From an uncultured Gemmatimonadota bacterium (lineage in GTDB: Bacteria > JAAXHH01), in assembly GCA_951812955.1 (NCBI GenBank), contig OX638340.1, positions 1,824,001 to 1,888,000 on the forward strand: a stretch of 64,000 bases of DNA. Reading direction: 5' to 3'. A program made the position numbers and the translations under genes. Numbering within the stretch: position 1 is the stretch's first letter; each line of letters opens with the position of its first letter. Below the pieces are notes generated by a model. That model had not been told where the DNA came from, made no database searches, and was given only the letters and a program-made list of their open reading frames with translations. Positions 5,497 to 58,785 of the stretch are shown here, piece by piece.

Positions 5497-7572
5497 CTAG
5501 TTCACTAACTCAAATACATGCTTAACACTACCGTCCGGTTTTAACACGAGCCCAAACCACTTTTCCAACTTATGTGGGTATACACTTTCTTTGGAATCCC
5601 GGTGAAATTTCTCCTCTAACACCTCCACGGTAGATCTACTACAGTAAATAAACAGTCCTATAGGTAAACCTGGGAACAAAGCACGAACTGTCTGGCTCTT
5701 CTTATTTAATAAATGCCGATTACAAATCCGATTGATATTTTTGTTTATAGTTTTACAAACATCGTCAGACAAGGTTATCAAGAAAAGCCCAAGGTCGATT
5801 TTCAATGGATCGGGGGAGGTTTCCAATTCCTTCAAGATGCTTCCCAAGGGCGTACCAACCAATCTTGTCAGTATGCCATCTGGAGTCGGTATTCCGTCTA
5901 TGCCGTCCCTCCTGACCGCCATTGCAGTATCGAGATGCACTGAGAAATCGTCATCAATTAACATCAAGTCAATATCGTCTCTAAGCCATAGGTTATGTCT
6001 TAGGTGATAGGACAGCAACATATGCTCATGACTCGCCATCAGACGCTCGCCAAATCGTGCCCGTAACTCAAGGTAACTTAAAAACCATAGAGGCGTAGAT
6101 AACATTTCTGATATCGCATCGAGTGAAAAAACGTCGGTGACAAGTGGAGGTAAAATCTGAGTAGTTGACTTGTATTCTAAAAACTGTCTCAACTGAAAAG
6201 CCAACGCCGGGTAATGGTCCGCGATGATTGCTACAGGAAAAATAACCTTCTGAGATTCTTCTATACGGATTACCTCGTTGTTCTTGGTATATAGACTTAC
6301 GGACTGATCTCCGAGGAGTTTAGCACACTCAAATGACTGCTCTACTGCATCTTGAATCGCCATCCTAAAGTCGGATCTTAACACTCGATCGTTCCCTCTT
6401 CGAGATTCCAGTGTTAGCCTTTTTGATTTCGATTGCACCAAAACAACCCGGTCGCCAAATATCACCAAGACATCAATCTCTCCAAGTGTGTGCCCTTTGG
6501 TCTTTCGTAACTCGACGTTTTTATACACTCGATCAGAACCAAAGACATGAACAAGTCTATCATATGTAAAGCTCTCCGTGAAATCCCCTCGATGTGTAAG
6601 TGCTGTTGGTGCATACAAACTATCAGTGCACATCCAATAGAACGGTGTTTCATAAAACGCTTCCGTTAATCCGTAATACTGCAAGAGTACGTATTTATCT
6701 ACATCTCTACGTATGAACGGGTAGATATAGGCTTTGTTAAAGTCATTGATAGTTGAGAAGCCAGCATTTCTTTCGCAAGAAGGTAAAGTAAATGCGTTTA
6801 CAAATGCTTGAACGTCTTCTGTAGGAAATCCTATATAGGAAGCAAGTTCAGTGCAGGAAAAGGTAAAGAAAGGTAAGACCGCCCGATCCTTAGCAGGCCC
6901 TTTTATTTGGTCGCTCAAGACTGTTTCTAAACTCCGGTTTAGGACGTAAGGAATCCCATCACACACCGCCTTTCCAACTACCAAATCAACTGATTTGTTC
7001 TGAGAAAGCCAGTCGGAATCGAGACTGTATTTTGTCAATGCTAGATCACGGTATTGAAAGGGATATGCAGACTCGCCTGCGTAGAAAATGGGTTCCCTAA
7101 GGGATTCCCCGGTAGAGAATGGATTTGCATTAGGGACAGACCCGCCGACTACTCTCCGCTGCATCAACTTCAACGTAGGTTGCACCATAGTTAAGTGCAA
7201 TTCATCCAACAGTTCCGCGGACTTCTTGATGTAATCATTAAGAACTGTAGGTGTTGGCATGGAAAAGTCGATAGGGCCTCGCATCATGAGACCGATTAGC
7301 GTGGTGATTTCGGTACGGATTAGCTGCGAATGGGATCGCCATTGAAGAAGTTCGTCGGAATTTAGTTCATCCTTGAAACCGACGACATTGTCCCGCAGTG
7401 AAATAAAAGCGATTGCGTGAATAAAACCTACGGAGAGGCACAATGCAGCCAGGTCATCAAACACAGACTGTTCTGAGCGCATATAAACGATCCTGGGCTG
7501 TAGCAGACAATTCCAAATTGCGTCTATTGGATTCGAAAGCCAAGAGTTGGATTCTGAATCCGAACCGTTCAT
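5497..7572 (-). CDS. Large hypothetical protein with an internal NERD / PD-(D/E)xK-like nuclease motif; candidate defence effector
   Basis: 691-aa ORF, low-GC codon usage. Central GHTLGEIDVLVIFGDRVVLVQSKSKR resembles the NERD/PD-(D/E)xK core (D...Q/E-x-K). No Walker A and no methyltransferase motifs. Possible Rx4H HEPN-like motif (RLMASH) in the C-terminal third. Confidence 0.6.
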   Translation of the reverse strand: MNGSDSESNSWLSNPIDAIWNCLLQPRIVYMRSEQSVFDDLAALCLSVGFIHAIAFISLRDNVVGFKDELNSDELLQWRSHSQLIRTEITTLIGLMMRGPIDFSMPTPTVLNDYIKKSAELLDELHLTMVQPTLKLMQRRVVGGSVPNANPFSTGESLREPIFYAGESAYPFQYRDLALTKYSLDSDWLSQNKSVDLVVGKAVCDGIPYVLNRSLETVLSDQIKGPAKDRAVLPFFTFSCTELASYIGFPTEDVQAFVNAFTLPSCERNAGFSTINDFNKAYIYPFIRRDVDKYVLLQYYGLTEAFYETPFYWMCTDSLYAPTALTHRGDFTESFTYDRLVHVFGSDRVYKNVELRKTKGHTLGEIDVLVIFGDRVVLVQSKSKRLTLESRRGNDRVLRSDFRMAIQDAVEQSFECAKLLGDQSVSLYTKNNEVIRIEESQKVIFPVAIIADHYPALAFQLRQFLEYKSTTQILPPLVTDVFSLDAISEMLSTPLWFLSYLELRARFGERLMASHEHMLLSYHLRHNLWLRDDIDLMLIDDDFSVHLDTAMAVRRDGIDGIPTPDGILTRLVGTPLGSILKELETSPDPLKIDLGLFLITLSDDVCKTINKNINRICNRHLLNKKSQTVRALFPGLPIGLFIYCSRSTVEVLEEKFHRDSKESVYPHKLEKWFGLVLKPDGSVKHVFELVN

Positions 7573-8029: not shown

Positions 8030-9445
8030 CTAACCAAACAACTCCTGCACCATTCCCCGCGCCCGATCGATCACGGTTTCGAGACAGCCGGGTGCTAGCT
8101 TGGCCCAGTAGGTGACATCTTCGTTGGCCTCGTGTCCACCGCGGGCATATGCCTCCCTCGTCGGCAGGTAACCGACATAGTGCGTCGTGAGGTGTGCCGG
8201 AAACAGATAGGAAGCTGGCGAGTTTACTTTAAGCGACAGTTGTCCTTCCACAAAGGGCTCACCGGGGAGGCCTACAATACAAAGATTACCGATGCGCAAG
8301 GCCTGTATCTCATAGCTGAACTCGCCGTCCCTCTGCCTGCATAGTTCGACGCTGCGGGTCGATGCCGCCCGAAACCAGCGCGGCTCCACTTGACCGTTCT
8401 CTTCGCGCGGCGGTTCCGGATGCTCAGTGAGAATCGCATCGACTTCGCGCAGTCGTTCGTCCGATATCTCGCGAAAGGGCAGTCTGATCTTTTCTATCCT
8501 TGTATCTAGCGCAGCATCGCCGGCGAACGTCATGTTGCGCATGATACGTTCGCTCAGACCGGATAATCCTCGCCCCATACGCCGGTGGTCCGGCTTAAAA
8601 TCGGGGTCGAAGGGGTGCCAGGGGTTGATGTTGCCGCAACATCCGTTGACGACCAACGGCACGGAATCCGGATCGAAAATCTGCTGCATCTCCCGGGACC
8701 AGGCGCCGGGCCAATCCGCCGACGCGGCCATGAAGGTCTCCTCGTTTCCGTATGCATTGACCGGATGACACGTGTAGTGCAGGAGAAAGGCCAGCGGTTT
8801 CGAATTCATATCCTGGACGCAGCACACGCCTACCTCCGGGTCCATCGGCCCTTCCAGGTAGCACACATCCGAGATCCCGAAGGGCTGCCGCTCCCGACCA
8901 AGGGGTCTGGGCATAACTATGGTACCGTCCCTTCGAACGCCGCGGCGGTTAAAAGCCAGGTCGCCCAACACGCCGCGGCCCAGACCGATGCGTGCCGGTT
9001 GTAGCCTGCCGGCTGCCTCGACCGCGGCCTCAACGGCAGCGGCTGCGGCCCGGTCGCCATAGGCGCGTTCGGCCCCCCGCAGATACTCCGTTTCCTCGCT
9101 AGTCTCCATTGGAAAATCCGAATCCAGCATGAAGTAACCGAGGCTCGGGGCGGAATGCGTCTGCGTCGCCTGGACCATGATGGCGTCTCGTTCTATGCCC
9201 GTCTGCTCGCTGATGGCCGCACGGATCCGGTCTGTGTATTCACCGGTGACAATGGTGAGATCCAGGATCACGATGCAGACGCGCCGCCCATCCGCTTCGA
9301 AAACGATGGCCTTGGCAAAGAGCGGATCCAAAACGGCCTGGGTCGGACGGTGGTCACCGGCTCCGCTGCCCGCCAGATGCGTCCCCTCCGAAGGGGATAT
9401 GTCGATCATTGCCGCACCGGCGCTCAGCTGGTTCGACTCGTTCAT
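8030..9445 (-). CDS. Hypothetical hydrolase, neutral/alkaline ceramidase-like
   Basis: About 470 aa. N-terminal region (IDISP...AKAIVFEADGRRVCIVILDL...) resembles the neutral ceramidase N-terminal domain. Start set at the ATG preceded by GGAAAG; the ORF extends further to 9589. Confidence 0.45.
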   Translation of the reverse strand: MNESNQLSAGAAMIDISPSEGTHLAGSGAGDHRPTQAVLDPLFAKAIVFEADGRRVCIVILDLTIVTGEYTDRIRAAISEQTGIERDAIMVQATQTHSAPSLGYFMLDSDFPMETSEETEYLRGAERAYGDRAAAAAVEAAVEAAGRLQPARIGLGRGVLGDLAFNRRGVRRDGTIVMPRPLGRERQPFGISDVCYLEGPMDPEVGVCCVQDMNSKPLAFLLHYTCHPVNAYGNEETFMAASADWPGAWSREMQQIFDPDSVPLVVNGCCGNINPWHPFDPDFKPDHRRMGRGLSGLSERIMRNMTFAGDAALDTRIEKIRLPFREISDERLREVDAILTEHPEPPREENGQVEPRWFRAASTRSVELCRQRDGEFSYEIQALRIGNLCIVGLPGEPFVEGQLSLKVNSPASYLFPAHLTTHYVGYLPTREAYARGGHEANEDVTYWAKLAPGCLETVIDRARGMVQELFG

Positions 9446-9796
9446 GGCTTTCCTTTCGCAGTCTGAAGAGTAACCCGTGGGGCGTAACCCAGGGACCCGC
9501 GCGGGGATTATCCCGTGTGGGGAGGATCCCAGTCCATGTGGGGAGTAACTCGTAACGTACAGACTATGGCACCAGTACCGTTTCGTCAACGCCGTTCAGC
9601 CTTGACAGACGCGTGTATCTTACTTGTATCACAGTGTACGAAGATATGGGTTAAACGGCGCGGTCCAGTGGAGTACTCGAGCAACAGGCGAACGGAGCGC
9701 CGCGTATTAGCCGCCGGCCAGTTGATGAAGACCGACATGCATGATGAAGACTAACGCACAGAATGGTCACACCATCTGAGAAAGGACTGGTCAATC

Positions 9797-28386: not shown

Positions 28387-30783
28387 ATGTTCCAGAATTA
28401 CTTCGTCGTGGCCATACGCAATCTCCTCCGGCATCCCGCCTACTCGTTAATCAACATCGCCGGCCTCGCCATCGGTTTGACCGCGTGCATCCTGATCCTG
28501 TTGTACGTCCAGGACGAGCTCAGCTACGATCGTCATCACGAGAAAGCCAATCGCATTTACCGGATCGTCGATGATATTGAAAGCGGTGGGCAGACCATAG
28601 AGACTGCGGGTACGCCCCCTGGATGGGCTGCCGCGCTGAAGCGGGACTACCCGGAAGTCGAGCAGTTCGTCCGCATGAGGGGCACGATGTCCGCATGGCT
28701 GATTACCCATGGTGAATCCCGGTTTTACGAAAAGAAAGTCATCTGGGCGGAGCCAACCCTGTTCGAGTTGTTTTCTATCCCTCTGGTTTCCGGCAATCCC
28801 CGGACCGCACTGAGAGATCCAAAATCGATGGTGGTTTCGGAGGAAATGGCGTTCAAGTACTTCGGCGAGGAAGAAGCATTGGGAAAGATCATCAACGTGG
28901 ATCAAAGCTGGGACTTCGTCGTGACCGGCGTCATGCGGAACATGCCCGCCAATTCCCACATGCGTGCGGACATGTTCGCTTCCTTCAGAGAATTCAGAGC
29001 CATGGGTCTGGATCAGGACTGGGAAAACCATGACAACAACTACACCTATCTTCTGTTGCGTGAAGGCGCCTCTCCCGAAGCACTCGAAGCGCGGTTGCCG
29101 TCCTTCCTGGAACGCTACGCTGGGGACATGTACAGCGAAGCGGGCGTCACCTTGAACCCGTCGCTGCAATCTCTGGTAGATATCCATCTGCATTCGCACC
29201 GGGAGAGCGAACTCGAGCCCAATGGAGATATCCGTTACGTGGCGCTCTTCATGATCATCTCGTTCCTGATTCCGCTGATCGCGTGCATCAACTTCGTCAA
29301 CATGGCTACGGCACGGGCGGCCATGCGCGCAAGGGAAGTAGGCGTACGCAAGGTGATGGGCGCAGATCGACCCCAGTTGATCAGGCAATTCCTGGGAGAA
29401 GCAGTCTTGATCGCGGCATTCGCCATGATCCTTGCGGTGGTCCTGGTACATCTCGCCCTGCCTTCTGTCAATGCGCTCGCGGGCAAGCAACTGGCGTTCC
29501 CCCTGTCGAATGGCTTTGTATTGGCCGTATTGGCCGGTGGCACATTGGCCACAGGATTAGCCGCTGGCTGCTATCCGGCATTCTATCTGTCGCGTTTCCT
29601 GCCTACCGAAGTTTTGAAGGGCAACCCAATATCGGGAACACAAGGATTGGGGTTGCGCAAAGTGCTGGTCGTTACTCAGTTCGCCATGTCCATATTCCTG
29701 CTCGTCAGCACGGCCATCATCTTCGACCAACTCGAGTACATCCAGACCAAACGCCTCGGATTCGATAAGGAACAGGTAATGGTCGTGCCCATAACGGGAT
29801 TCCTGCAGCGGCAGAATACGCCCGTACTGAAAGATCGATTGTCCCAGTTACCGGGCGTTATGAGCATGGCGACGTCAACCGCCGTACCGGGCATGCGGGT
29901 GTTACCGATTATGCCGGTCCGTCCGGAGGGGATGCGGCCCGAGGATCACCTGATGATGGCCACACTGCAGGTGGACGATCATTTCCTGGACGTCATGGAG
30001 ATCGGACTGGTGACCGGGCGGAACTTTTCAACAGACTGGGGAACGGATTCGACCACGGGGTTCCTGCTGAACGAGACTGCAGTGCGGTACCTGGGGTGGG
30101 GAGCGCCTGCCGACGCGATTGGCAAGCGATTCGAGTGGATCCCATTCGGCGGGAAGAAAGGGGACGTAATCGGTGTGGTAGAGGATTTTCACCTGCGAAC
30201 GATTCACGAGGAGATCGAACCGGTCGTTATACTAACGAGTTCGTACCAGGAATATGTCCTTATCCGTATCGCACCGGACGGGATCCCCGAGACCGTCTCG
30301 CGCATTGAGAAAGTATGGCGGGACGTCGATCCCAGGTACCCGCTTGAATACACGTTCCTGGAAGAGGATTTTGACCGGCTGTACCGTGCCGACCGCCAGC
30401 TTGGCGAGGTCTTCGCGTCCTTTGCGTTTCTCGCGGTCTTCGTGGCCTGCCTGGGCCTCCTGGGGCTGTCTTCGTTCTCGATACAGCAGCGTACGAAAGA
30501 GATCGGCATTCGCAAGGTACTCGGCTCTACGGTTTCAGGAATCGTGGTATTGCTGTCCAGGGATTTCATGAAGTACGTCCTGCTGGCCAATGTCATCGCC
30601 TGGCCGCTGGCGTACTACGCCATGACGATTTGGCTACAAAATTACGCCTATTCATCGGAGATCAGGTTGGCGTGGTTTGTCTCGGGCGGCGTCACCGCGC
30701 TGGTCATCGCCTGGCTGACGATCGGCGCCCACGCGATGGCCGCTTCGCGGCGAAATCCGGTTAACGCCTTGAGGCAGGGGTGA
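28387..30783 (+). CDS. ABC transporter permease, FtsX/MacB-like, ~800 aa with two FtsX domains (paralog 1)
   Basis: MFQNYFVVAIRNLLRHPAYSLINIAGLAIGLTACILILLYVQDELSYDRHH N-terminus and the C-terminal ...RRNPVNALRQG are characteristic of the 800-aa FtsX-family permeases. Confidence 0.9.
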   Translation: MFQNYFVVAIRNLLRHPAYSLINIAGLAIGLTACILILLYVQDELSYDRHHEKANRIYRIVDDIESGGQTIETAGTPPGWAAALKRDYPEVEQFVRMRGTMSAWLITHGESRFYEKKVIWAEPTLFELFSIPLVSGNPRTALRDPKSMVVSEEMAFKYFGEEEALGKIINVDQSWDFVVTGVMRNMPANSHMRADMFASFREFRAMGLDQDWENHDNNYTYLLLREGASPEALEARLPSFLERYAGDMYSEAGVTLNPSLQSLVDIHLHSHRESELEPNGDIRYVALFMIISFLIPLIACINFVNMATARAAMRAREVGVRKVMGADRPQLIRQFLGEAVLIAAFAMILAVVLVHLALPSVNALAGKQLAFPLSNGFVLAVLAGGTLATGLAAGCYPAFYLSRFLPTEVLKGNPISGTQGLGLRKVLVVTQFAMSIFLLVSTAIIFDQLEYIQTKRLGFDKEQVMVVPITGFLQRQNTPVLKDRLSQLPGVMSMATSTAVPGMRVLPIMPVRPEGMRPEDHLMMATLQVDDHFLDVMEIGLVTGRNFSTDWGTDSTTGFLLNETAVRYLGWGAPADAIGKRFEWIPFGGKKGDVIGVVEDFHLRTIHEEIEPVVILTSSYQEYVLIRIAPDGIPETVSRIEKVWRDVDPRYPLEYTFLEEDFDRLYRADRQLGEVFASFAFLAVFVACLGLLGLSSFSIQQRTKEIGIRKVLGSTVSGIVVLLSRDFMKYVLLANVIAWPLAYYAMTIWLQNYAYSSEIRLAWFVSGGVTALVIAWLTIGAHAMAASRRNPVNALRQG

Positions 30784-31736: not shown

Positions 31737-34142
31737 GTGTTCCAGAACTACCTCAGTGTAGCCTTACGCAACCTCCGCAGGCATCCCGCCTACTCGCTCA
31801 TCAACATCGCAGGGCTTGCAATCGGCATGGCCACCTGCGTCCTGATCCTCCTGTATATCCAGGATGAGCTCAGCTACGACCGATATCATCCTCATGCCGA
31901 CCGCGTATACCGGATCGTCGACGACATCGAAAGCGGGGGACAGACCGTCCAGACCGCCGGGACTCCCACTGCCTGGGGACCTGCCCTGAAGCGCGACTTC
32001 CCCGAGATCGAGCTCGTTGTCCGGTTGAGAGGTACAGAATCCGCGTGGCTGGTCGATCTCGGCAACACAATCTACTATGAACGCAAAGTCATCTGGGCGG
32101 GATCGGACCTGTTCAGGATGTTCAGTTTTCCACTGGTCGCGGGCGACCCGGGCACCGCGCTGGCAGAACCGTATTCGATGGTGATCACCGAGGAATTGGC
32201 AGACAAGTATTTCGGCGCCGAAGAAGCCATTGGCAAAGCAGTCAATCTCGACAATCGCTGGGACTTCACGGTGACGGGCGTCATGAAGAACATTCCTACC
32301 AATTCTCACATGCGTCCAGACATGTTCGTATCCTATAGCACAATGATTGCGATACAGGCCTCCTGGGACCTGGAAGACTGGGAGTACCACCGAAACCTGT
32401 ACACCTACATCCGGCTCCGCGAGCATGTGTCACCGGATGATCTGGAAGCGAAATTGCCGGCATTTCTGGAACGTCACGCGGGTGACCAGTACCGGGAGGC
32501 GGGCATCAGCCTGCGGCCGTCGCTCCAGCCCCTGGTGGACATCCACCTCTATTCTAACCGGGAGAGTGAGCACGAACCCAACGGCGATATCCGGTACGTG
32601 GCCCTCTTCATGGCCATCGCGTTCCTGATCCTTATTATCGCATGCATCAATTTCATCAACCTGGCCACGGCCCGTTCCGAGATGCGCGCCAGGGAAGTCG
32701 GTGTGAGAAAGGTACTGGGCGCGAATCGGATCCAGTTGATCCGCCAGTTCCTGGGAGAATCGGTCCTCATGGCAGGTCTCGCCGCGATCGTTGCGGTAAT
32801 ACTGGTCCATCTCGCCTTGCCTGCCGTGAACGATATCGCGGGGAAACAACTCGCGCTGCCGCTTGCTGACTGGACCGTGCTGGCCGCGCTGGCCCTCGGT
32901 ACGACCTTGATCGGATTAACCGCCGGCAGTTATCCCGCGGCATACCTGTCGGGATTTCTTCCCGCCGTAGTAATGAAAGGCAACCCGGAGACGGGAAAGA
33001 AAGGCCTGGGGATGCGGCAGGCACTGGTGGTGATACAGTTCTCCATGTCCATCTTCCTGCTGGTCAGTACGGCCATCATCCATGATCAGCTCGATTACAT
33101 CCAGACCAAGCGGCTGGGTTTCAACAAAGAGCACGTTATGGTCGTCCCCATAACAGGTTCCCCGCAACTGCCAAATACGCCTGTCCTGAAGCAGCGCCTG
33201 TCGGAATTGCCCGGTGTCGTGGGTATCGCAACGACCACCGGCGTGCCAGGCATGCGGGTTATGCCTATCCTGGAGGTACGTCCCGAAGGAATGCGGCCTG
33301 AGGATCACCTGATGATGGCCACGCTGCACGTGGACGAGCACTTCCTGGACGTCATGAACATCGATCTCGTCGCTGGCCGGAACTTTTCATCGGACTGGGG
33401 TACGGATACGACCAGGGGGATCCTGATGAACGAGACGGCCGTCCGGTACCTGGACTGGGGAGCGCCCGACGACGCCATCGGCAGGCAAATCGAGCGGCTC
33501 AACTACAACAGGACGAAAGGCCGTGTGATCGGCGTGGTTCGGGATTTCCACCTGCGGACCATACACGAAGAGATCGAACCCGCATTGATCATGACCAGCA
33601 CCTATCACATTTTCGTCCTGATTCGAATCCAGCCCGAGGGAATCTCTGACACCATTGCACACATCGAGGAAATATGGAGGGATGTGGATCCCAGGTTTCC
33701 GCTGGATTATACCTTCCTGGACGAGGATTTCGACGCGCTGTACCGGACCGACCAGCAGCTTGGCGAGATCTTCGCGGTCTTCGCGTTTCTCGCGATCTTC
33801 GTGGCCTGCCTTGGACTCCTGGGTCTGGCTTCCTTTTCCATCCAGCAACGCACCCGCGAGATCGGAATCCGCAAAGTAGTCGGTTCATCGGTTTCCAGTA
33901 TCGTGTTGCTCCTGTCGAAGGATTTTATGAAGTACGTGCTCCTGGCGAACCTGATCGCCTGGCCGCTGACCTACTTCGTCATGAACAACTGGCTGCAGAA
34001 CTACGCCTACGCCGCGGAACTTCGATTCGAGTGGTTTATGGCCGGCGGTGTTTTTGCCCTGGTCATTGCCTGGTTGACGATCGGTGCGCATGCCCTCGCT
34101 GCGTCGCGTAGGAATCCGGTGAACGCGTTGCGGCAGGGGTGA
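31737..34142 (+). CDS. ABC transporter permease, FtsX/MacB-like (paralog 2), GTG start
   Basis: Same architecture and N-/C-terminal signatures as 28387-30783. Confidence 0.9.
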   Translation: MFQNYLSVALRNLRRHPAYSLINIAGLAIGMATCVLILLYIQDELSYDRYHPHADRVYRIVDDIESGGQTVQTAGTPTAWGPALKRDFPEIELVVRLRGTESAWLVDLGNTIYYERKVIWAGSDLFRMFSFPLVAGDPGTALAEPYSMVITEELADKYFGAEEAIGKAVNLDNRWDFTVTGVMKNIPTNSHMRPDMFVSYSTMIAIQASWDLEDWEYHRNLYTYIRLREHVSPDDLEAKLPAFLERHAGDQYREAGISLRPSLQPLVDIHLYSNRESEHEPNGDIRYVALFMAIAFLILIIACINFINLATARSEMRAREVGVRKVLGANRIQLIRQFLGESVLMAGLAAIVAVILVHLALPAVNDIAGKQLALPLADWTVLAALALGTTLIGLTAGSYPAAYLSGFLPAVVMKGNPETGKKGLGMRQALVVIQFSMSIFLLVSTAIIHDQLDYIQTKRLGFNKEHVMVVPITGSPQLPNTPVLKQRLSELPGVVGIATTTGVPGMRVMPILEVRPEGMRPEDHLMMATLHVDEHFLDVMNIDLVAGRNFSSDWGTDTTRGILMNETAVRYLDWGAPDDAIGRQIERLNYNRTKGRVIGVVRDFHLRTIHEEIEPALIMTSTYHIFVLIRIQPEGISDTIAHIEEIWRDVDPRFPLDYTFLDEDFDALYRTDQQLGEIFAVFAFLAIFVACLGLLGLASFSIQQRTREIGIRKVVGSSVSSIVLLLSKDFMKYVLLANLIAWPLTYFVMNNWLQNYAYAAELRFEWFMAGGVFALVIAWLTIGAHALAASRRNPVNALRQG

Positions 34143-34700: not shown

Positions 34701-37106
34701 ATGGTTTTCCATTACCTCAGAATCGCCCTACGTAACATGATCCGGCAGCCTGGCTACGCCGGCATCAACATCCTCGGACTGGCGATCGGCATCACCTGCT
34801 GTATGCTGATTTTGCTGTATATCCGGAACGAACTGAGCTACGACCGTTTCCATGATCATGCCGATCGGATCTACCGTGTAGTAAACGGCAATTCCGCCCG
34901 CACGCCACCCGCAGTGGGACCGGCGTTCAAAGAACTGTTCCTGGAGGTAGAGGAATATGCCCGGATGCGGGGCACAGCCAATATCTGGATGATGGCCTAT
35001 GGGGACAATGCCTTCTTTGAAAGCGATGTCTTCAGGGCAAGCAGAGGCGTTTTCAAGGTCTTTTCTTTTCCGCTTGTACGGGGAAATCCACAAACCGCAC
35101 TGGACGACTATGCGCATCCGGAACAAACTGTCGTCATCAGCGAAACTATGGCGACTAAACTCTTCGGTGACGAAAATCCCATGGGCAAGCTGATCCGCGC
35201 GGACGATGAGGAAGACCTTCGTGTGACCGGTGTGATGAAAGCTGTGCCGTCCAATTCCCACTTCGCCGTCGAATATCTGGTTTGTGAGCGTCTCGATGTT
35301 GGAAATCTCAGCGAGCGTTACGCAACGAACTGGTTTGCTGCGGTGCATTTCACCTACGTTCTGCTGTCAGAGGGAACAGACCCCAGTGAATTGGAGAATA
35401 AAATCGCCAGATGGGCAGATACCTTTGAACCGCTGATGCGGCTCAAGGCGCGAGGCCTGCCCTTCACTCCCCGGCTACAGCCAATGACCGACATCCATCT
35501 GCGGTCGCACCTGGAAGAGGATATGGCAAGCAACAGCGATATCAGCTACATCTACATCTTTTCGGTCGTAGCGTTTTTTGTCGTTCTGATCGCCTGTATC
35601 AACTTCATGAATCTGGCCACGGCGCGGGCTACCATCCGGGCTAGAGAAGTGGCCATTCGGAAAACAACAGGCGCTTCGCGGACCGAGTTGATCATACAAT
35701 ACATGGGCGAGTCCATGATGTCGGCCGGGTTGGCCTTTGTAGTTGCCATGGCCCTCTTTATCGCCATCCTGCCCTGGTTCAATACGCTGGTGGGAAAGGC
35801 GTTTCAGATCAGTTACCTTGACAGTCCGGAGATGTTGCTCTGGATGATGGGCATAACGTTGTTTGTGGGACTGTTGTCCGGCAGTTATCCTGCGCTGTTT
35901 ATATCCAGGATTCATCCGGCAGGGATTTTCAGGGGTGAATTGACAAGCGGAACCACGGGTTCCACACTGCGCAAGAGCCTTGTGGTGGCGCAGTTCACGC
36001 TATCGATTCTGCTGATTATCAGTACGGCTATTGTGTATCAACAGCTGGATCACATGCAAAGTAAACAACTGGGATTCGATAAGGACCAGGTCGTGGTAAT
36101 CCCACTTATCGGAGGTGTGGAGCGGGATTTCAATGCCTTCAAGGCCCGGCTTTCCCAGAGTCCACATATTCAGCGTGTTACTCGATCTGTATTGATGCCG
36201 GGACGTATGGCCAGTTCCGTTCAAATGCCCGCCTTTGCAACACGTCTGGCAGATCAGCCTGAAGAGAAAATGGTCAGGATTCCCGCCCTGTTTGTTTCTG
36301 CCGATTTCGAAGAAACCCTTGGTCTCAGATTGCTTTCCGGACGTCCATTTTCCAGCGAACTGAACGATGATTCGAACAACGCGGTGATCCTTAACCGGGC
36401 CGCGGTTGAACGATTGGGGCTGACCACACCGGAGGAAGTCGCAGGACTTCATATACGTTACATAGGGAGCTCTCCAATCAGGATCATAGGCGTCGTAGAG
36501 GATTTCCATATGCAGAGCGTTCATAGTGCGGCAGGGCCGGTACAGCTGAGGTTCATGAACCGCGGTGGCGGCGGCCAGGCGGCGATACGATTACAGGCGC
36601 AGAATATACCGGATGGGATTGATGCGATTGAAGACACATGGGCTTCGATATTCCCCGACTACCCGTTAGCGTATTCGTTTCTGGATGAAGATTTCGAGCG
36701 ATTGTACGTGTCGGAACGACAGACCGGCAATCTGCTCGGGGCATTCAGCTTTCTAGCCATCTTCATTGCGTGTCTGGGCCTGTTCGGCCTTGCTGCGTTC
36801 ACCACCCGTCAGCAAACCAAAGAGGTCGGTATTCACAAAGTAATGGGGGCTTCGGTGACTCGTATCGTCTTTATGCTTTCAAAGGATTTTCTCAAGCTGG
36901 TAGCGATTGCCGTACCGGTCGCCTGGGTCCTGGCTTACTGGGCCATGAGCAACTGGCTGCAGAACTTCGCGTATCGGGTCGATATCGGCCCCGCGTGGTT
37001 CCTGATCGCCGCTTTCCTGGCACTGGCCATCGCACTGGCTACAGTCAGTTTCAAGGCGGTAACGACTGCGTTGACGAACCCGGTGGAGAGCCTGCGGTCA
37101 GAATAG
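34701..37106 (+). CDS. ABC transporter permease, FtsX/MacB-like (paralog 3, the most divergent)
   Basis: MVFHYLRIALRNMIRQPGYAGINILGLAIGITCCMLILLYIRNELSYDRFH; 801 aa. Confidence 0.9.
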   Translation: MVFHYLRIALRNMIRQPGYAGINILGLAIGITCCMLILLYIRNELSYDRFHDHADRIYRVVNGNSARTPPAVGPAFKELFLEVEEYARMRGTANIWMMAYGDNAFFESDVFRASRGVFKVFSFPLVRGNPQTALDDYAHPEQTVVISETMATKLFGDENPMGKLIRADDEEDLRVTGVMKAVPSNSHFAVEYLVCERLDVGNLSERYATNWFAAVHFTYVLLSEGTDPSELENKIARWADTFEPLMRLKARGLPFTPRLQPMTDIHLRSHLEEDMASNSDISYIYIFSVVAFFVVLIACINFMNLATARATIRAREVAIRKTTGASRTELIIQYMGESMMSAGLAFVVAMALFIAILPWFNTLVGKAFQISYLDSPEMLLWMMGITLFVGLLSGSYPALFISRIHPAGIFRGELTSGTTGSTLRKSLVVAQFTLSILLIISTAIVYQQLDHMQSKQLGFDKDQVVVIPLIGGVERDFNAFKARLSQSPHIQRVTRSVLMPGRMASSVQMPAFATRLADQPEEKMVRIPALFVSADFEETLGLRLLSGRPFSSELNDDSNNAVILNRAAVERLGLTTPEEVAGLHIRYIGSSPIRIIGVVEDFHMQSVHSAAGPVQLRFMNRGGGGQAAIRLQAQNIPDGIDAIEDTWASIFPDYPLAYSFLDEDFERLYVSERQTGNLLGAFSFLAIFIACLGLFGLAAFTTRQQTKEVGIHKVMGASVTRIVFMLSKDFLKLVAIAVPVAWVLAYWAMSNWLQNFAYRVDIGPAWFLIAAFLALAIALATVSFKAVTTALTNPVESLRSE

Positions 37107-52016: not shown

Positions 52017-54422
52017 ATGCTCCAAAACTACCTCACCATAGCCATTCGCAACCTGCTCAGGTATCCCGCCTACACGCTCATCAACATCGTGGGGCTCGCG
52101 ATCGGCCTGGCGGCCTGCATGCTGATCCTGCGCTACGTCTGGGACGAGATGAGCTACGATCGGTATCATCCACACGCAGATCGGGTTTACCGGGTAGTCG
52201 ATGACATAGAAAGCGCGGGGCAGACAGTCCAGACGGCGGGATCTCCTTTGGGGTGGGGGCCCGCTCTGAAGCGTGATTTTCCCGAAATCGAGCTTTTCGC
52301 CCGGGTGCGGGGCACGACATCCGTCTGGTTTATCATGCATGAAGAGAAACGTTACTATGAGAAAAAGGTCATCTGGGCGGATGCGGCTCTGCTCGACATG
52401 TTTTCCATCCCCTTTGTCGCCGGCAATCCCCGTACCGCGCTGACCGAACCGTATTCGATCGTGATCTCGGAGGATATGGCCTTCAAGTATTTCGGTGGCG
52501 AGGACCCCATGGGGAAAGTCCTCAGGGGGGACAATGTCTGGGATTTCACGGTGACCGGCGTCATGCGCAACATACCGGCCAATTCCCATCTGCGTCCTGA
52601 TATGATCATGTCCCTTGTGACACGGAATGCCATTTTTGCAAATGACCTCGATGAATGGGAGATGCACGAGAATCGTTATACTTACATCAGGCTGCATGAA
52701 AACGCCTCTCCGGATGCCCTGGAAGCTCAGCTGCCCGCCTTCGTGGAACGAAATAAAACCGGGCGGTTCCGTGATTCGAGCAAAGTGTTGAGACCGTCTC
52801 TGCAGCCCCTGGTGGACATTCACCTCCATTCGCACAGGGACAGCGAGCTCGAGCCCAACGGAGACATCCGCTACGTAACGCTCTTCATGATTATCGCCTT
52901 CCTGATTCCTATCATCGCCTGCATCAACTTCGTGAACCTGGCCACGGCACGATCGGCCATGCGCGCCAGGGAGGTGGGCGTACGCAAGGTTATGGGGGCC
53001 AATCGCCCGCAGCTACTGGGGCAGTTCCTGGGCGAAGCCGTCGTCATGGCGGGACTTGCCATGATCGTCGCGGTCGCGCTTGTACATCTAGCCCTGCCCG
53101 GCGTAAACGTGCTGGCCGGCAAGCAACTGGATTTTGCTCTTTCGGACGGCTGGGTGTTGGGAGCGCTGATCGCTGGAACCATCGTTATCGCAATGGCTGC
53201 CGGTAGCTATCCCGCAACCTACCTATCTGGTTTCCTGCCCACCGATGTACTGAAAGGGAATCTGAAGTCAGGAACGCAAGGCATGGGATTGCGGCGGACC
53301 CTGGTGGTGATCCAGTTCGTCATGTCCATCTTTCTGCTGGTCAGCACCGCCGTCATCTACGACCAGCTCGAGTACATCCAGGACATGAGGCTCGGTTTCA
53401 ATAAAGAGCATGTAATGGTGATCCCGATTACCGGCCAGGCTCAGCGCGAAAACACCCCGGTGCTGAGACAACGCGTCGCGCAGTTGCCCGGCGTGGTAGG
53501 GATAGCGACGACCGATGGCGTCCCGGGCGAACTCTCACCGCGGATTATGGCCGTCCGTTCCGATGAGATGAGCCCCGAGGACAACCTGATTGTGTCTGTG
53601 TTCTCCTCAGATGATCAGTTCCTGGAGGTCATGGAAATCGGCCTGGTGGCAGGCCGGAACTTTCAGGCCGAGTGGGGCAGGGATACAACCATGGTAGTCC
53701 TGCTGAACGAGACCGCTGCCCGTAAGCTGGGTTGGGATGCGCCGCCCGACGCAATAGGTATGCTTGTGGAATGGATCGAGTACCGCGGTACGAAGGGACG
53801 CGTCCGGGGTGTTGTGGAGGATTTTCATCTGCAATCGATTCATGAGGAAATCGAACCGATCGTATACATACACTATCCCATCGACTTCAGCGACATACTC
53901 ATCCGAATCAGGCCGGAAAACGTACCGGATACCATCACACGGATCCAGGAAGTGTGGCGGGAAGTCGAACCCCTGTATCCTCTGGCATATACGTTTCTCG
54001 ACGAAGATTTCGACAGCCTCTACCGTGCCGAACGCCAACTGGGTACGGTATTCGCGGTCTTCGCCTTTCTCGCGATCTTCGTGGCGTGCCTGGGCCTGCT
54101 TGGACTGGCTTCCTTCTCCATCCAGCAGCGGACCAGGGAGATTGGAATCCGCAAGGTACTCGGCGCTACCGTTTCGGACATCGTCCTGCTGCTCTCAAAG
54201 GATTTCATGAAGTATGTACTACTGGCCAATGTGATCGCCTGGCCCCTGGCATACCTTGCCATGGCACAATGGCTGCAGAACTATGCCTATGCGGCGGAAA
54301 TCAACTTTGCGTGGTTTATCGCGGGAGGCCTCGTTGCGGTCGCCATCGCCTGGCTTACGATCGGGGCGCACGCGCTGGCCGCCGCGGGCAGAAACCCGGT
54401 TAACGCACTAAGGCAGGGGTGA
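52017..54422 (+). CDS. ABC transporter permease, FtsX/MacB-like (paralog 4)
   Basis: MLQNYLTIAIRNLLRYPAYTLINIVGLAIGLAACMLILRYVWDEMSYDRYH; 801 aa, C-terminal ...GRNPVNALRQG. Confidence 0.9.
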   Translation: MLQNYLTIAIRNLLRYPAYTLINIVGLAIGLAACMLILRYVWDEMSYDRYHPHADRVYRVVDDIESAGQTVQTAGSPLGWGPALKRDFPEIELFARVRGTTSVWFIMHEEKRYYEKKVIWADAALLDMFSIPFVAGNPRTALTEPYSIVISEDMAFKYFGGEDPMGKVLRGDNVWDFTVTGVMRNIPANSHLRPDMIMSLVTRNAIFANDLDEWEMHENRYTYIRLHENASPDALEAQLPAFVERNKTGRFRDSSKVLRPSLQPLVDIHLHSHRDSELEPNGDIRYVTLFMIIAFLIPIIACINFVNLATARSAMRAREVGVRKVMGANRPQLLGQFLGEAVVMAGLAMIVAVALVHLALPGVNVLAGKQLDFALSDGWVLGALIAGTIVIAMAAGSYPATYLSGFLPTDVLKGNLKSGTQGMGLRRTLVVIQFVMSIFLLVSTAVIYDQLEYIQDMRLGFNKEHVMVIPITGQAQRENTPVLRQRVAQLPGVVGIATTDGVPGELSPRIMAVRSDEMSPEDNLIVSVFSSDDQFLEVMEIGLVAGRNFQAEWGRDTTMVVLLNETAARKLGWDAPPDAIGMLVEWIEYRGTKGRVRGVVEDFHLQSIHEEIEPIVYIHYPIDFSDILIRIRPENVPDTITRIQEVWREVEPLYPLAYTFLDEDFDSLYRAERQLGTVFAVFAFLAIFVACLGLLGLASFSIQQRTREIGIRKVLGATVSDIVLLLSKDFMKYVLLANVIAWPLAYLAMAQWLQNYAYAAEINFAWFIAGGLVAVAIAWLTIGAHALAAAGRNPVNALRQG

Positions 54423-54433
54423 TTTCGCGGAAA

Positions 54434-55024
54434 TTACACGACGTTCCGAGACTGGGTATCCGAGGCGTTCCAGCAAGTCTCGATCACATTAAAATCAGGT
54501 CGGGACAGGACAACGTAGGAAGGGAGTCCCAACTGTTTCCACATCGCGAATGGGTCCTGGCGAGTAATGCGGCTCACATACAGGCTCAGAACGGTCCCAT
54601 GGGTAATGAGCGCCAGGTCTTCTTGCGGAAATCGTTCTAACAGTCCGTCGACGGACTTTGAGAATCTTCTGTACGCTGTATCCGCGGTCTCCTCGCCAAA
54701 AACCAGCTCCGCAGGTTGAGCGTAGAAACGGCTGATCGACTGCTCAAAGCACTCCTTCTCCAGGAAACCGACACTCCTACGCTCATGTTCCTGCAATCCC
54801 TCGATGACTTCTACCGGAACATTCAGTCTGTGCGCTGAAATATTGGCTGTTTCTATGGCTTTAGGTTCGTTGCTACTGAATATCATATCCAGATTATACG
54901 GTCCCAGTTTCTCAGCCAAGATCCGGGAGCGGACTTGACCTTCTTCAGACAAACGCCATTCCCTGGAAGGAACCGCAGGATCGATCTCAGGCAACGAATG
55001 CTTCACCAGAACCAGTACCGGCAT
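54434..55024 (-). CDS. Histidine phosphatase (phosphoglycerate-mutase/SixA-like) family protein
   Basis: N-terminal VLVKHSLPE (RHG-like motif) and ~200 aa size. Last gene of the minus-strand cluster. Confidence 0.55.
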   Translation of the reverse strand: MPVLVLVKHSLPEIDPAVPSREWRLSEEGQVRSRILAEKLGPYNLDMIFSSNEPKAIETANISAHRLNVPVEVIEGLQEHERRSVGFLEKECFEQSISRFYAQPAELVFGEETADTAYRRFSKSVDGLLERFPQEDLALITHGTVLSLYVSRITRQDPFAMWKQLGLPSYVVLSRPDFNVIETCWNASDTQSRNVV

Positions 55025-55046: not shown

Positions 55047-56165
55047 CTACGGCGTATTCACCGGAAAGTGCTTGATCATTCTGATGATCTTCAACTCTGT
55101 TCCCGACGGCATCTCCGAACTACCATGGTGCAGTTGTCGAAAGCCGTTTTTCTCGTAGAACTCCACGGCTGCAAGCGAAGAATTGAGTACGATACGCTCC
55201 GCGCCTGCGCGCATGGCCTGGCATTCCGCTGTTCTGTAAAGTGCCGAACCGACTCCTTTTTTACTCGCCCTGCCGGAAACGAAAACCGCGGCATTGTACT
55301 CAGTACCCTTTGCCCGATGCACCTCGGAGAATCCCAGTAATCCCGTGGCATCTTCGGCCACATAGATTGTCGCTCCCTGCGCAACGGCACCAAGGTACTT
55401 CTCTCGAGATATCGGAGCGATCCACTCCTCGAGAACCTCCATGGCGTAGTAAGGTCCGCAATGGGATCTTATCGATTCTTCGTGTATGATTGCTAGTTCG
55501 TCAAAGTCGGCCTCAGTCGCGCGGCGGACACAGTAGGAGCGTTTAGCCATTTCGACCATCTGCGTGAGTGCGCGGGGATGCTGGTGGTTTTCGAGCGCTT
55601 TTAAAACCCGTGCGGAAGCGTCCTCCGGTGCTTCGGCGGAAGTATCCACCTCGACGTCATAGACCGCGTACCTGTGCACCTGTTCGTACTGGTTTCTCGC
55701 CAGGCCTATAGTCCGATCTCCCCTCGCGACTTCCCTTCGTTCCAATTCATCGAGCGGACAGAAAACCTTCACAAACAGCACATCGAAAGGGCTGAGAATT
55801 TTCACACGATGACGTAACAGATCCAGGACATCGAACTCTTGCCCTGCCGGCAGATGCTGAGGTGGAGCGATAACATCGTCGACGATCACATTGTTACCGC
55901 TGCGGGCCAAGGCCGCGATGCACTCCGCAAACCCCATCTCGAAGTAACGGATGTCGGGGACCAACCCGCGCTTGATCTGTTTGCGCGAAGGAATCTCGTC
56001 GAACAGGTTGATGGAAAAATAGAGGAACGGTTCCTGCAGCACGTCGAGCAACGCCTCAGCCAGCGTCGTCTTCCCAGCGCTCGACGATCCATTGAGATAA
56101 ATCACACTGCCGCTGCGACTAGGGGTTTTCAAGTGCTCAACGTGGGATTTCATTCTGAAGTCCAT
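55047..56165 (-). CDS. Chloramphenicol-phosphotransferase-like P-loop kinase fused to a C-terminal GNAT acetyltransferase
   Basis: N-terminal half is collinear with the CPT family (IYLNGSSSAGKTTLAEAL, IVDDV, DVLFVKVFCP...ARGDRTIG...YDVEVDTS). C-terminal half has a GNAT core (KGVGSALYR...AVEFYEKNGF). Confidence 0.75.
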   Translation of the reverse strand: MDFRMKSHVEHLKTPSRSGSVIYLNGSSSAGKTTLAEALLDVLQEPFLYFSINLFDEIPSRKQIKRGLVPDIRYFEMGFAECIAALARSGNNVIVDDVIAPPQHLPAGQEFDVLDLLRHRVKILSPFDVLFVKVFCPLDELERREVARGDRTIGLARNQYEQVHRYAVYDVEVDTSAEAPEDASARVLKALENHQHPRALTQMVEMAKRSYCVRRATEADFDELAIIHEESIRSHCGPYYAMEVLEEWIAPISREKYLGAVAQGATIYVAEDATGLLGFSEVHRAKGTEYNAAVFVSGRASKKGVGSALYRTAECQAMRAGAERIVLNSSLAAVEFYEKNGFRQLHHGSSEMPSGTELKIIRMIKHFPVNTP

Positions 56166-56761
56166 TCGCTGGGCCAACTTCCGAGTCGTCGTTCAAAGTA
56201 CAGTTCTAAACCGTCCTCTTCATCAATATGTGAGCCGATTTCCCGAAATCCCATCGACCGAGCCATGCCCAGGGATGGGATGTTACCTGGGTTGATAGAC
56301 AGGACGAAACAACGTTGACCATGTTCTTCATACGCCCATTTCATCAACGCAAGCGCCGCTTCGTTGGCGATGCCCCGTCTGCGGAAGGGTTCTCCAATTT
56401 CGTAGCCGAGTTCTACCCCATCTGCCGCTACATTTCGCAGATCCTCGGGACCGGGCTCGGAGTGGAAGCCGATCCGACCACACATAGTCTGTGACTGTTG
56501 AATGACTATGGCCCGCAACAACCAGGGCTGTACCTCTGGACTGGCATTGAGTTGTCTTAGCCGATTTCGTAAAGTACGGGTGTTGAGAACAAGGTCTATC
56601 GGAATCTTAAAGCCGGCGATCTTCTCTGCCAGCAGTTGATTCCGGGCTATCAACGCTTCCAGCAGTCGCGGGGCCATCGGAACCAATTCCAGCCGACGTG
56701 AGGTAATGATGTGGATTATTGGCTGTTCTCCGTTCGTCACCAGTGTTACAGAGAGGAACAA
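56150..56761 (-). CDS. GNAT family N-acetyltransferase (RimJ/RimL-like)
   Basis: RRRGIANEAALALMKWAYEEHG...FREIG acetyl-CoA-binding pattern; 203 aa. Overlaps the downstream kinase-GNAT gene. Confidence 0.65.
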   Translation of the reverse strand: MFLSVTLVTNGEQPIIHIITSRRLELVPMAPRLLEALIARNQLLAEKIAGFKIPIDLVLNTRTLRNRLRQLNASPEVQPWLLRAIVIQQSQTMCGRIGFHSEPGPEDLRNVAADGVELGYEIGEPFRRRGIANEAALALMKWAYEEHGQRCFVLSINPGNIPSLGMARSMGFREIGSHIDEEDGLELYFERRLGSWPSEWTSE

Positions 56762-56826: not shown

Positions 56827-58245
56827 CTACTCCCTGATTCCACACGCCTCGTCCGTCAGCACGTCGTAGTGATGTATGTACTTGACGCCGTCGATCACGA
56901 GCCGATCGGTTTGTGGTAGATCCTCCTCCCACGTCATTTCGACTCCCTGCAAATGGGGTGGCTTCTCCCGCTTGCCCCAGTGATTGCCGTTGTAGCGCCG
57001 GAACAGCAGCGTGCGGCCAGCGCGGGTGACGTACGCCATGACCAACACCGCTCGTTCGGACGTATCTTCGTCGATATCGAAAACCCGCATGCATTCGAAT
57101 GTCCGATCGCCGATGCACACCGTGTAGAGGCCCTGTGAAAACACCAGCGGCGCATCCGATTTCTTAATGAACGTTCCATCCGGTTGTTCCGTCAGGTAAT
57201 CCCGGTCTTCGACCAGACGGGGCGTCATCCCGAAATCCCATCCAAAGTCCTCGTCCAGGCAGGTCAGAAGTTCCCTGGTTCCATCGGATTTCATGCTCTC
57301 GACGGCCAGCCAATGCACCTCCGTCTCTTCCAGGCGGCCCCAGACCCGGGTATGGCGATCCCTCGTTTCCGGATCATGGTTGAGCGTTAGGAGACCCTCC
57401 CGGTCTGGACGGCGTTGTTCATCCATCTCGATCTCTACGCATGGTCTTCCGTGTATGATGGCGCGCCGCGTTGCAACCATGTCCTTGACCTCGGTTAACT
57501 TCCAGGCCGAACCATCCCGCGTAGGCTCGTAATCCGCCCATCGGACCTGATCACCGATTTCGGGTACGATGAACCACCAGGACAGCTCCCGAAGATCTAT
57601 GGAAAATGGAGTTGCCGTACTTATCTCGATGGATATATCGGGCCGGTAATTGGGAAAGGGTACAGTCGTAGCTTTTGTGTCGTCGCTCATGGCCATGCTC
57701 CTTCTATTGGTGGTTACACCCAGTTCGATTCGAACCATGTCCCGTCCGTGAGACAGCCGCCGCTCGATGGTTCCCGGTGGGCAGCGATGACGGGCCGCAA
57801 TTTCCGCTATGCTCAATCCATCCAGGTAGAACGACCTCAGGGCCGCTTGTTCCTTATCGGGCACGTGATCGAAGGCTTCGACCACATCCTTCGCTGCCCG
57901 CCGTTGACGGGCCGTCGGCACACCGAATCGATTAATCATCGTTGCCAGTTCCTCGGAATCGACGAAGCGCTCTCGCCGTTGTGTAGAGCGCATGAAGTCG
58001 ACGCAGCGGTTGCGCGCAACCTGGTACAGCCAGGCGCGCACGTTTCTCGGTGATCGAACACGCAACCCCAACCAGGCATGAACGAGCGTCTCCTGTAGCA
58101 CGTCCTCTACCGCCTCCACCGACCCGATACGATCCCGGATCAATGCGGCCAGAGATCGCTCGTAGCGCCGGATCAGGGCCACGAAGGCCCGTTCGTCGCC
58201 GGTCCGGATCTGTTGAACAAGTACCTGGTCACTGAGGAACCCCAT
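56827..58245 (-). CDS. ECF (sigma-70 family) sigma factor fused to a ~280-aa C-terminal domain of unknown function
   Basis: N-terminal sigma region 2 (FVALIRRYERSLAALIRDRIGSVEAVEDVLQETLVHAW) and region 4 (LSIAEIAARHRCPPGTIERRLSHGRDMV), then a long soluble extension with no TM helix. Confidence 0.75.
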   Translation of the reverse strand: MGFLSDQVLVQQIRTGDERAFVALIRRYERSLAALIRDRIGSVEAVEDVLQETLVHAWLGLRVRSPRNVRAWLYQVARNRCVDFMRSTQRRERFVDSEELATMINRFGVPTARQRRAAKDVVEAFDHVPDKEQAALRSFYLDGLSIAEIAARHRCPPGTIERRLSHGRDMVRIELGVTTNRRSMAMSDDTKATTVPFPNYRPDISIEISTATPFSIDLRELSWWFIVPEIGDQVRWADYEPTRDGSAWKLTEVKDMVATRRAIIHGRPCVEIEMDEQRRPDREGLLTLNHDPETRDRHTRVWGRLEETEVHWLAVESMKSDGTRELLTCLDEDFGWDFGMTPRLVEDRDYLTEQPDGTFIKKSDAPLVFSQGLYTVCIGDRTFECMRVFDIDEDTSERAVLVMAYVTRAGRTLLFRRYNGNHWGKREKPPHLQGVEMTWEEDLPQTDRLVIDGVKYIHHYDVLTDEACGIRE

Positions 58246-58425
58246 TAGATCGTTCTCCCTTCATCTAACAGGGCGATGTTGGCGGGGGAAAGGTTCACGG
58301 AGTTTGGAAAAGGTGACTACGTGGAGTATTGGAATGAAGCCATGAGGTACGGTCAGTTTGGCTTCTTCTGACTGAGGTGGAATAGGCTTCGTATCAGCTT
58401 ACCCCAGGATGAAAGACCAGCGAAC

Positions 58426-58785
58426 TCACCCAGATCCTGCTACAGGCCAATCAGCACCAGCCCCTGGTCCGATAACATGCCAATGCATGTGTGGCGTAAC
58501 TCCTGGCGCCGCCGCATTGGCACGCACATAGAATCCCCTGCCATCCAGCAGACCGGTGGACTTTGCAGTCTGCTGGACAGCACGCACCATGGAAGAGAGC
58601 AGATCCCCATCCAGGGCGGCCTCATCCATAAGCCCAGCAACGTGGGTTTTAGGTACCACTACCACATGGACCTGGGCTACGGGTCGCGGGTGGCGGAACG
58701 CCAATACCAGATTGTCCTCATAAATCCGTTTCACGTCGAGCTTTCCTGAGAATACATCCTCGCAATACCAATCTCGTCGCGCCAT
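58426..58785 (-). CDS. HIT family protein (second copy)
   Basis: GVTPHMHWHVIGP histidine-triad motif; 119 aa. Confidence 0.75.
   Translation of the reverse strand: MARRDWYCEDVFSGKLDVKRIYEDNLVLAFRHPRPVAQVHVVVVPKTHVAGLMDEAALDGDLLSSMVRAVQQTAKSTGLLDGRGFYVRANAAAPGVTPHMHWHVIGPGAGADWPVAGSG

Follow-up and report, generated by a model that had tools for sequence, protein, structure and literature searches.

A 64,000-nucleotide stretch of DNA from an uncultured Gemmatimonadota bacterium (GTDB JAAXHH01; assembly GCA_951812955.1, contig OX638340.1, positions 1,824,001-1,888,000 of the forward strand), hereafter the window, to whose positions all coordinates refer, contains a gene for a sigma factor of the extracytoplasmic function (ECF) type with a large C-terminal domain (CTD, residues 186-472 of the 472-residue protein). 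Our analysis suggests that this gene encodes an autoregulated sigma factor with a fused sensor or anti-sigma-like domain, which would also be translated separately from a start site inside the same reading frame, and we assign to this overall reading a probability of roughly 0.55. A preliminary description of the same DNA had recognized the sigma regions and the unusual extension; the conserved internal ribosome-binding site with its start codon and a family of stand-alone relatives of the CTD go beyond it.

The full open reading frame (ORF) occupies positions 56827..58245 of the minus strand, starting with ATG and ending with a stop codon at 56827-56829, and is preceded by a GGGAG Shine-Dalgarno (SD) sequence (58255..58259, minus strand), read from the sequence and kept in close relatives. 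Pfam analysis located sigma region 2 at residues 24-91 (PF04542, Sigma70_r2, E=2e-12; 57973..58176, minus strand) and sigma region 4 at residues 121-168 (PF08281, Sigma70_r4_2, E=1.2e-9; 57742..57885, minus strand), with an additional match to PF07638 over residues 9-174. Regions 1.1 and 3 were absent, region 3 returning no match, which is the composition of an ECF (group 4) sigma factor. The NCBIfam model for ECF sigma-70 factors, TIGR02937, scored 74.9 bits against a cut-off of 42.9, and for the 472-residue protein no NCBIfam equivalog model came near its own cut-off. The nearest sequences in the PDB were RpoE, SigW and SigH, with matches confined to residues 4-185. The protein is an ECF sigma factor and the product of a real gene. 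The earlier placement of regions 2 and 4 within the first 190 residues or so, followed by an extension of about 280 residues, agrees with the Pfam boundaries (residues 24-168) and with the measured length of the extension, 287 residues.

Two samples of homologous loci were used for comparison: a scan with one genome per species gave 79 loci, and a metagenome scan returned 498 matching stretches, from which 80 loci were kept, many of them human-gut contigs. At the junction between the sigma part and the CTD, codons R181-R182-S183 of the window gene contain the SD-like sequence AGAAGGAGC (57697..57705, minus strand), located 7-8 nucleotides upstream of the in-frame ATG of Met186 (57688..57690, minus strand), which is the proposed start of a free 287-residue CTD product. 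Met186 is invariant in the 74 aligned homologues, although the linker around it is variable, and the ATG of Met184 lies too near the internal SD to be served by it. The pentamers AGGAG, GGAGG or GAGGA precede the internal ATG at a spacing of 7-9 nucleotides in almost all loci. When distinct genes were counted, an SD-like 5-mer was present at positions -17 to -4 from the internal ATG in 60 of the 63 distinct fused genes of high guanine-plus-cytosine (GC) content, compared with a frequency of 9% over all positions, and of 11% at the remaining ATG triplets, in the high-GC genes; across both branches of the family this background ranged from 7 to 11%. The clostridial branch showed the arrangement GAAAGGAGA-N5-7-ATG in 41 of 44 distinct gut genes.

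Within the five codons upstream of Met186 in the high-GC genes, 98 of 100 arginine codons were AGG or AGA, versus 12% in the remainder of these genes. The SD motif is encoded by Arg-Arg-Ser/Gly/Lys in the high-GC genes and by Lys-Gly-Glu in Clostridia, and since its nucleotides are conserved while the encoded residues differ, selection appears to act on the RNA. The predicted folding energy of the segment from -30 to +20 around the internal ATG was then compared with that of all other such segments of the same gene, and the mRNA turned out to be open at this point both in 61 high-GC genes (mean z +1.94, median rank within the most open 1.5%) and in 63 gut genes (mean z +1.61, median rank 5%). 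An SD sequence at 5-10 nucleotides, a conserved start codon and locally unstructured mRNA, the features expected of an internal start, are thus found together, and the aligned sequences point to a conserved region for translation initiation that coincides exactly with the sigma/CTD boundary. On this basis, initiation at Met186 probably does occur. Our literature search found no ECF sigma factor for which an internal start of translation had been reported.

The same signals might be explained differently if only the full-length fusion were made, the internal SD and ATG being either a relic of a two-gene operon that became fused or a site of ribosome pausing that would give the sigma domains time to fold ahead of the CTD. 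Ribosomes read from the sigma part into the CTD anyway and a second start is not strictly needed; moreover, two distant homologues in which the parts lie in different frames may represent the unfused state. A relic, however, would not survive synonymous-site saturation across phyla, and the motif is kept here by means of different codons and different residues, together with an invariant ATG, the right spacing and open mRNA. Because the SD motif, the correctly spaced ATG and the open mRNA occur together, an initiation region accounts for the boundary better than a pause site does, and we consider it unlikely that the fusion is the only product.

The fused architecture itself was traced through several searches. 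A search with the extension alone returned 166 protein clusters, and among the 120 listed nearly all were 455-486 residues long and carried sigma domains; in an alignment of 74 of these homologues, full-length identity ranged from 53 to 94%. Independent assemblies contain the fused ORF without interruption, in 63 distinct loci from genomes and in another 63 distinct loci from metagenomes. The preliminary description had named a fusion artefact as one of two outcomes that would overturn its reading, and the presence of internal start signals is the one observation in favour of two genes having been joined by an assembly error or a frameshift. As the same fused ORF recurs across independent assemblies, this explanation is refuted and retains practically no probability. 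An exhaustive profile search, yielding 499 representative clusters at 50% identity, contained two architectures: a stand-alone form of about 255-285 residues and a sigma-fused form of about 415-480 residues. A further search with one low-GC clostridial CTD yielded 2,416 clusters, whose sources were named Clostridia, Lachnospiraceae and Roseburia, among others. Aligned with a clostridial member, the window protein was collinear through the sigma part and the CTD alike (27% identity, E=2e-50). The fusion is therefore conserved and collinear from high-GC metagenome-assembled genomes (MAGs) to Clostridia. MAG labels at the 79 genome loci comprised Latescibacterota, Gemmatimonadota, 'Spirochaetia', Gammaproteobacteria/Pseudomonadales, Binatia, Brocadiaceae and Limnochordia, and many of the bin names (APA_, IRC, COS, RHO, SB06xx and 277c) belong to what we take to be MAG sets of marine-sponge symbionts.

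Candidates for natural proteins consisting of the extension only were also inspected, and most were discarded. In P0026 a contig end cuts the gene, P0119 carries an insertion of about 100 nucleotides inside sigma region 4, and the 256-residue gut entries that were checked lie mostly near contig ends, with the sigma part cut off. One gut locus (L177) has a gene of the CTD-only type that is internal to its contig. An insertion of about 100 nucleotides at approximately 3760-3860 of L002, identical in L003, disrupts sigma region 4 of a gammaproteobacterial homologue; the two loci come from independent metagenome assemblies, the CTD frame downstream of the insertion is intact, and the inserted sequence may be a small mobile element or repeat. 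The most distant homologues from genomes were found in a Brocadiaceae MAG (L080, 1062-1690) and a Limnochordia MAG (L081, 5448-6010), where the sigma part and the CTD lie in different frames with an overlap of a few nucleotides. The former has an in-frame stop in sigma region 2.1, with the promoter motif kept and the CTD intact, and the latter, from a long-read MAG, has a +1 shift and a GTG replacing the ATG. These loci could be natural splits, sigma genes in decay whose CTD has been kept, or indels introduced by assembly; as natural pairs of sigma factor and CTD they were judged ambiguous and were not relied on. In several genomes a pair of sigma-CTD paralogues lies within a short distance, or the sigma-CTD gene is followed at once by a further ECF-like gene whose long C-terminal extension is different (L025, at 5428-6816 and 8164-9561; L070 and L076; L099, L103 and L128).

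The preliminary description had proposed a search for ECF-type -35 and -10 elements upstream of the sigma gene, and such a promoter sequence was identified at 58270..58297 of the minus strand, with a -35 element TGAACC(TTT) at 58297-58292 and a -10 element CGCCCT(GT) at 58275-58270, 24 nucleotides upstream of the ATG; its full form is TGAACCTTT-N13-CGCCCTGT. Alignment of the 110 nucleotides upstream of the start in the genome loci showed the motif TGAACCTTT-N13-CGCC(C/T)TGT in essentially every clade. When 957 kb of flanking DNA were scanned on both strands with a regular expression, 76 matches were obtained, 57 of which fell within 60 nucleotides upstream of a mapped sigma start (57 of the 64 loci in which the start was mapped). 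The gap between GAACCYT and CGCC was exactly 14 nucleotides in all 57, and most of the other 19 matches likewise directly preceded the sigma gene, at loci for which start mapping had failed; elsewhere in the flanking DNA the motif hardly occurs. Clostridial relatives carry TGAACCTTT-N13/14-CGTCTAT at the corresponding site. AAC in the -35 element and CG in the -10 element form the classical layout of an ECF promoter, and both are present here with a fixed spacer and conservation across clades. A second copy of the promoter was not found in the 64-kb window with 2 mismatches allowed. Because the promoter is conserved just upstream of the gene and occurs as a single copy in the window, the sigma gene is likely to be autoregulated. 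In the gammaproteobacterial clade (L057, L060, L062, L068 and L082) the -10 element CGCCTTGT ends about 8 nucleotides before the ATG; transcripts of the sigma-CTD gene may have little or no leader in this clade, in which case the internal SD would be their sole SD sequence.

The CTD (56830..57690, minus strand) is predicted to be a soluble, acidic, all-beta domain. It showed no Pfam match at E<=10 and no NCBIfam match at E<=1, and a profile of the CTD family found nothing better than E=0.45 among PDB sequences. No transmembrane segment was detected, the highest 19-residue Kyte-Doolittle mean being 0.75, and the CTD has a net charge of -20 versus +8 for the sigma part. An AlphaFold2 model of residues 186-472, built from a 79-sequence alignment, reached a mean predicted local distance difference test (pLDDT) of 90.1 and a predicted template modelling score (pTM) of 0.88, and contained 17 beta-strands and two short helices. 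These data uphold the earlier view of an extension lacking transmembrane helices and resembling neither SnoaL nor tetratricopeptide repeat (TPR) domains, and indicate an all-beta domain for which Pfam and NCBIfam contain no model. An AlphaFold model of the extension and its contact with the sigma domains, also suggested in the preliminary description, succeeded in part: the CTD was equally confident in the full-length model, but sigma region 4 and the linkers were less so (pTM of this model 0.60), so that inter-domain contacts could not be read.

The best structural matches of the CTD model were LolA, LolB, the N-domain of RseB-MucB and LppX, all of them unclosed beta-barrels, and the resemblance was weak. 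The LolA-like fold is an 11-stranded unclosed beta-barrel with a helical lid and a hydrophobic cavity; half-barrels of this type bind hydrophobic ligands, and RseB is a regulator of the sigma-E pathway. The extension contains five dispersed cysteines, and the linker between sigma regions 2 and 4 has no CxC motif. The residues C269, C385, H458 and D461 were considered as a possible metal or redox site, but as a family-wide feature this was rejected, neither cysteine being conserved in the gut branch.

Stand-alone relatives of the CTD were first evident at three loci (L053, L058 and L065), in which a protein of 273-278 residues belonging to the CTD family is encoded directly upstream of the fused gene. 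At these loci the promoter motif lies in front of the stand-alone paralogue, and the sigma-CTD gene comes directly after that paralogue; judging from this arrangement, the promoter drives both genes and a free protein of the CTD type is made together with the fusion. These loci fit the logic of a dual product, an extra free paralogue being apparently co-transcribed with the fusion. A search with this paralogue gave 144 clusters of 'hypothetical proteins', about 260-300 residues long (one of 338 residues), none having a Pfam domain except one with DUF433; source names included Candidatus Poribacteria, Gemmatimonadota and Caldilineaceae. The stand-alone family shares 34% identity with the window CTD (E=6e-38), and the invariant residues common to both comprise an FPxxRP motif, E220, W223/W224, Y239, C269, R343, C385, G410-R411, R416 and D461.

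Outside these three loci the stand-alone genes are not adjacent to sigma factors, and the promoter motif is absent upstream of them. Most of them lie within or next to ABC transporter operons of the Opp type. In L086-L088 (5001-5798) the gene is flanked by the permease and ATPase genes within an ABC transporter operon of the Opp/Dpp type, and at other loci (L083, L084, L085 and L089) it is found beside such transporters, PhyH dioxygenases, MR_MLE (enolase-superfamily) proteins, aminotransferases or HIT proteins, in MAGs labelled Poribacteria, Caldilineaceae and Gemmatimonadota. Judging from this gene context, the domain may bind or convert a small molecule that the cell imports, and the stand-alone family may be a metabolic enzyme or binding protein. 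In the clade of the window a HIT-family gene (58426-58785, minus strand) lies directly upstream of the sigma-CTD gene, and in L083 (5833-6330), a Poribacteria-labelled MAG, a HIT gene is found directly downstream of the stand-alone gene of the CTD family; the two adjacencies could be a coincidence or a functional link.

The association of these stand-alone proteins with operons for transport and catabolism that lack a nearby sigma factor would also be expected if the CTD were an enzyme or binding protein independent of sigma, fused to it for co-expression, the free form being the working one and the sigma factor remaining unregulated. The residues common to both families, including His265, Arg416 and Asp461, are in line with such a shared activity. 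Nevertheless, thousands of sequences across phyla keep the fusion and have no anti-sigma gene nearby, a partner of purely metabolic function should stand unfused beside the sigma gene far more often, and known ECF extensions regulate their sigma factors (PMC8999054, PMC7826278). An unregulated sigma factor with an independent passenger domain is accordingly a rather improbable explanation, somewhat more so than the relic or pause site discussed above, and a regulatory role of the CTD is preferred.

For this regulatory role we infer internal initiation, inhibition of the sigma factor by the CTD, ligand binding and a regulon lying outside the window, which could be combined as follows. Transcription would start from the gene's own ECF-type promoter, TGAACCTTT-N13-CGCCYTGT, and give one mRNA with two starts, the 5' ATG directing synthesis of the 472-residue sigma-CTD protein and the internal SD with Met186 that of the free 287-residue CTD. 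The CTD would serve as a cytoplasmic regulatory or sensor module in place of a separate anti-sigma factor, its acidic chain holding the basic sigma domains inactive in cis. Free CTD may also inhibit in trans, or through CTD-CTD contacts; its action as a trans inhibitor is a tentative proposal. Binding of a small cytoplasmic ligand to the CTD would then lift the inhibition. The internal start would restore an excess of regulator over sigma factor, as in two-gene operons of sigma and anti-sigma factors, and this excess would damp the positive autoregulation. It is conceivable, at slightly less than even odds, that the gene works as a two-in-one module in which the balance between its two products determines switching and the CTD represents an undescribed ligand-binding fold common to the stand-alone family of the Opp operons.

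The genes downstream of the sigma gene were examined as possible targets, the preliminary description having suggested that the sigma factor controls them. They encode, all on the minus strand and according to Pfam, a GNAT acetyltransferase (Acetyltransf_3; 56150-56761), a 376-residue protein in which a kinase resembling chloramphenicol phosphotransferase (CPT) is fused to a GNAT domain (55047-56177), and a histidine phosphatase (54434-55024). If switching on these three genes were the main job of the sigma factor, their shared strand, the short gaps or overlaps and the lack of a terminator-like site after the sigma gene would be readily understood, and because such a site is missing between the sigma gene and the genes that follow, read-through from the sigma gene into them is possible. 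However, in relatives of 75-95% identity the three genes occur in differing combinations or are absent, and they were found in no locus below 70% identity and in none of the other clades. An ECF promoter in front of them, which the preliminary description had also proposed to look for, was not found anywhere in the 64 kb with 2 mismatches allowed, and the 65-nucleotide gap downstream of the sigma gene contains a weak sigma-70-like site. Control of these genes as the main function is thus quite improbable, and the earlier suggestion is not supported, an autoregulated factor with a regulon elsewhere being preferred. No anti-sigma gene or other neighbour was common across clades in the 79 genome loci and about 80 gut metagenome loci; in three relatives (L012, L013 and L020) a MacB-like permease gene directly abuts the sigma gene, and each gut member stands by itself, in surroundings that vary.

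Other features of the surroundings were recorded. The segment 54434-56761 (minus strand) is a variable cassette, replaced in close relatives by other combinations of genes, by a sulfotransferase-like gene or by nothing, and looks like an insertion hotspot for genes that modify small molecules. Four paralogous ORFs of about 800 residues lie on the plus strand at 28387-30783, 31737-34142, 34701-37106 and 52017-54422, with pairwise identities of 41-71%; a relative 87% identical to the last of them has MacB_PCD and FtsX domains, and the set represents a notable local expansion of MacB-type ABC permeases. In one gut sub-lineage (L096, L120, L122, L125 and L126) the sigma-CTD gene adjoins ParA- and ParB-like genes, which suggests carriage on an integrative or conjugative element.

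Comparison with known systems places the protein among the ECF sigma factors that are extended at the C-terminus. ECF41 (SigJ, Ecf41Bli), ECF56, ECF205, ECF294 and ECF295 likewise have a fused soluble C-terminal domain and no anti-sigma gene nearby, and for SnoaL extensions a contact with sigma regions 2 and 4 and the sensing of a small molecule are assumed (PMC8999054, PMC3426412). These extensions, however, are alpha+beta cones of 120-150 residues, whereas the CTD described here has 287 residues, is all-beta in the model and shows no SnoaL match in Pfam at the threshold given above. To our knowledge, an internal translation start has not been described for the ECF groups with SnoaL extensions. 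Regulation by the extension is also a property of ECF42 (TPR, about 200 residues), ECF57 (WD40) and ECF238/CorE (a cysteine-rich tail of about 20 residues), but the present domain has neither a TPR match nor a WD40 match, contains 17 strands and, over its 287 residues, lacks a cysteine-rich tail of the CxC type. In-frame internal starts give rise to a second functional product in the Tn5 transposase and its inhibitor and in CheA-L and CheA-S. A comparable C-terminal product is generated from Cas10d or Cas8 in the case of Cas11 (bioRxiv 10.1101/2020.04.18.045682). In the Tn5, CheA and Cas10d/Cas11 systems the C-terminal product works with or against the full-length protein; here such a product is predicted from sequence features.

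A single polypeptide combining sigma factor and regulator is found as well in IutY of Pseudomonas putida (ECF243) (PMC8999054). IutY has a transmembrane FecR-like part and becomes active through regulated proteolysis, whereas the present CTD is predicted to be cytoplasmic with no transmembrane helix; ECF48, ECF52 and ECF53 are, like IutY, hybrids of sigma and anti-sigma factor that intramembrane proteolysis activates and that have transmembrane helices in the extension, and the hydropathy maximum of the CTD argues against any here. ECF262 (model protein SFB89493.1, Ruminococcus albus), from Firmicutes/Clostridia, is one of several uncharacterised groups with a regulatory extension given in a review of non-canonical ECF factors, and stands under 'extension, others' in the ECF Hub classification (PMC8999054, Table 2). 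Going by this description, the large clostridial branch may be ECF262.

The value of extended ECF sigma factors lies in their working as orthogonal, self-contained switches, and only a few types of extension (SnoaL, TPR, cysteine-rich) are understood. The family described here adds a large, confidently folded domain and a defined promoter, TGAACCTTT-N13/14-CGYC, in which the -10 core is CGCC in the high-GC members and CGTC in Clostridia. Its wide distribution, which includes abundant human-gut Clostridia, makes it experimentally tractable, and the ligand may be approached through the transporter and catabolic operons in which the stand-alone homologues lie. If the proposed reading is correct, a fused sigma factor and regulator could tune the stoichiometry of regulator to sigma, which would otherwise be fixed at 1:1, and a sigma factor would join the short list of bacterial genes that encode two functional proteins in one frame. 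It would also represent a new mode of ECF regulation, shared by thousands of gut Clostridia and by marine MAGs that bear the labels of several phyla.

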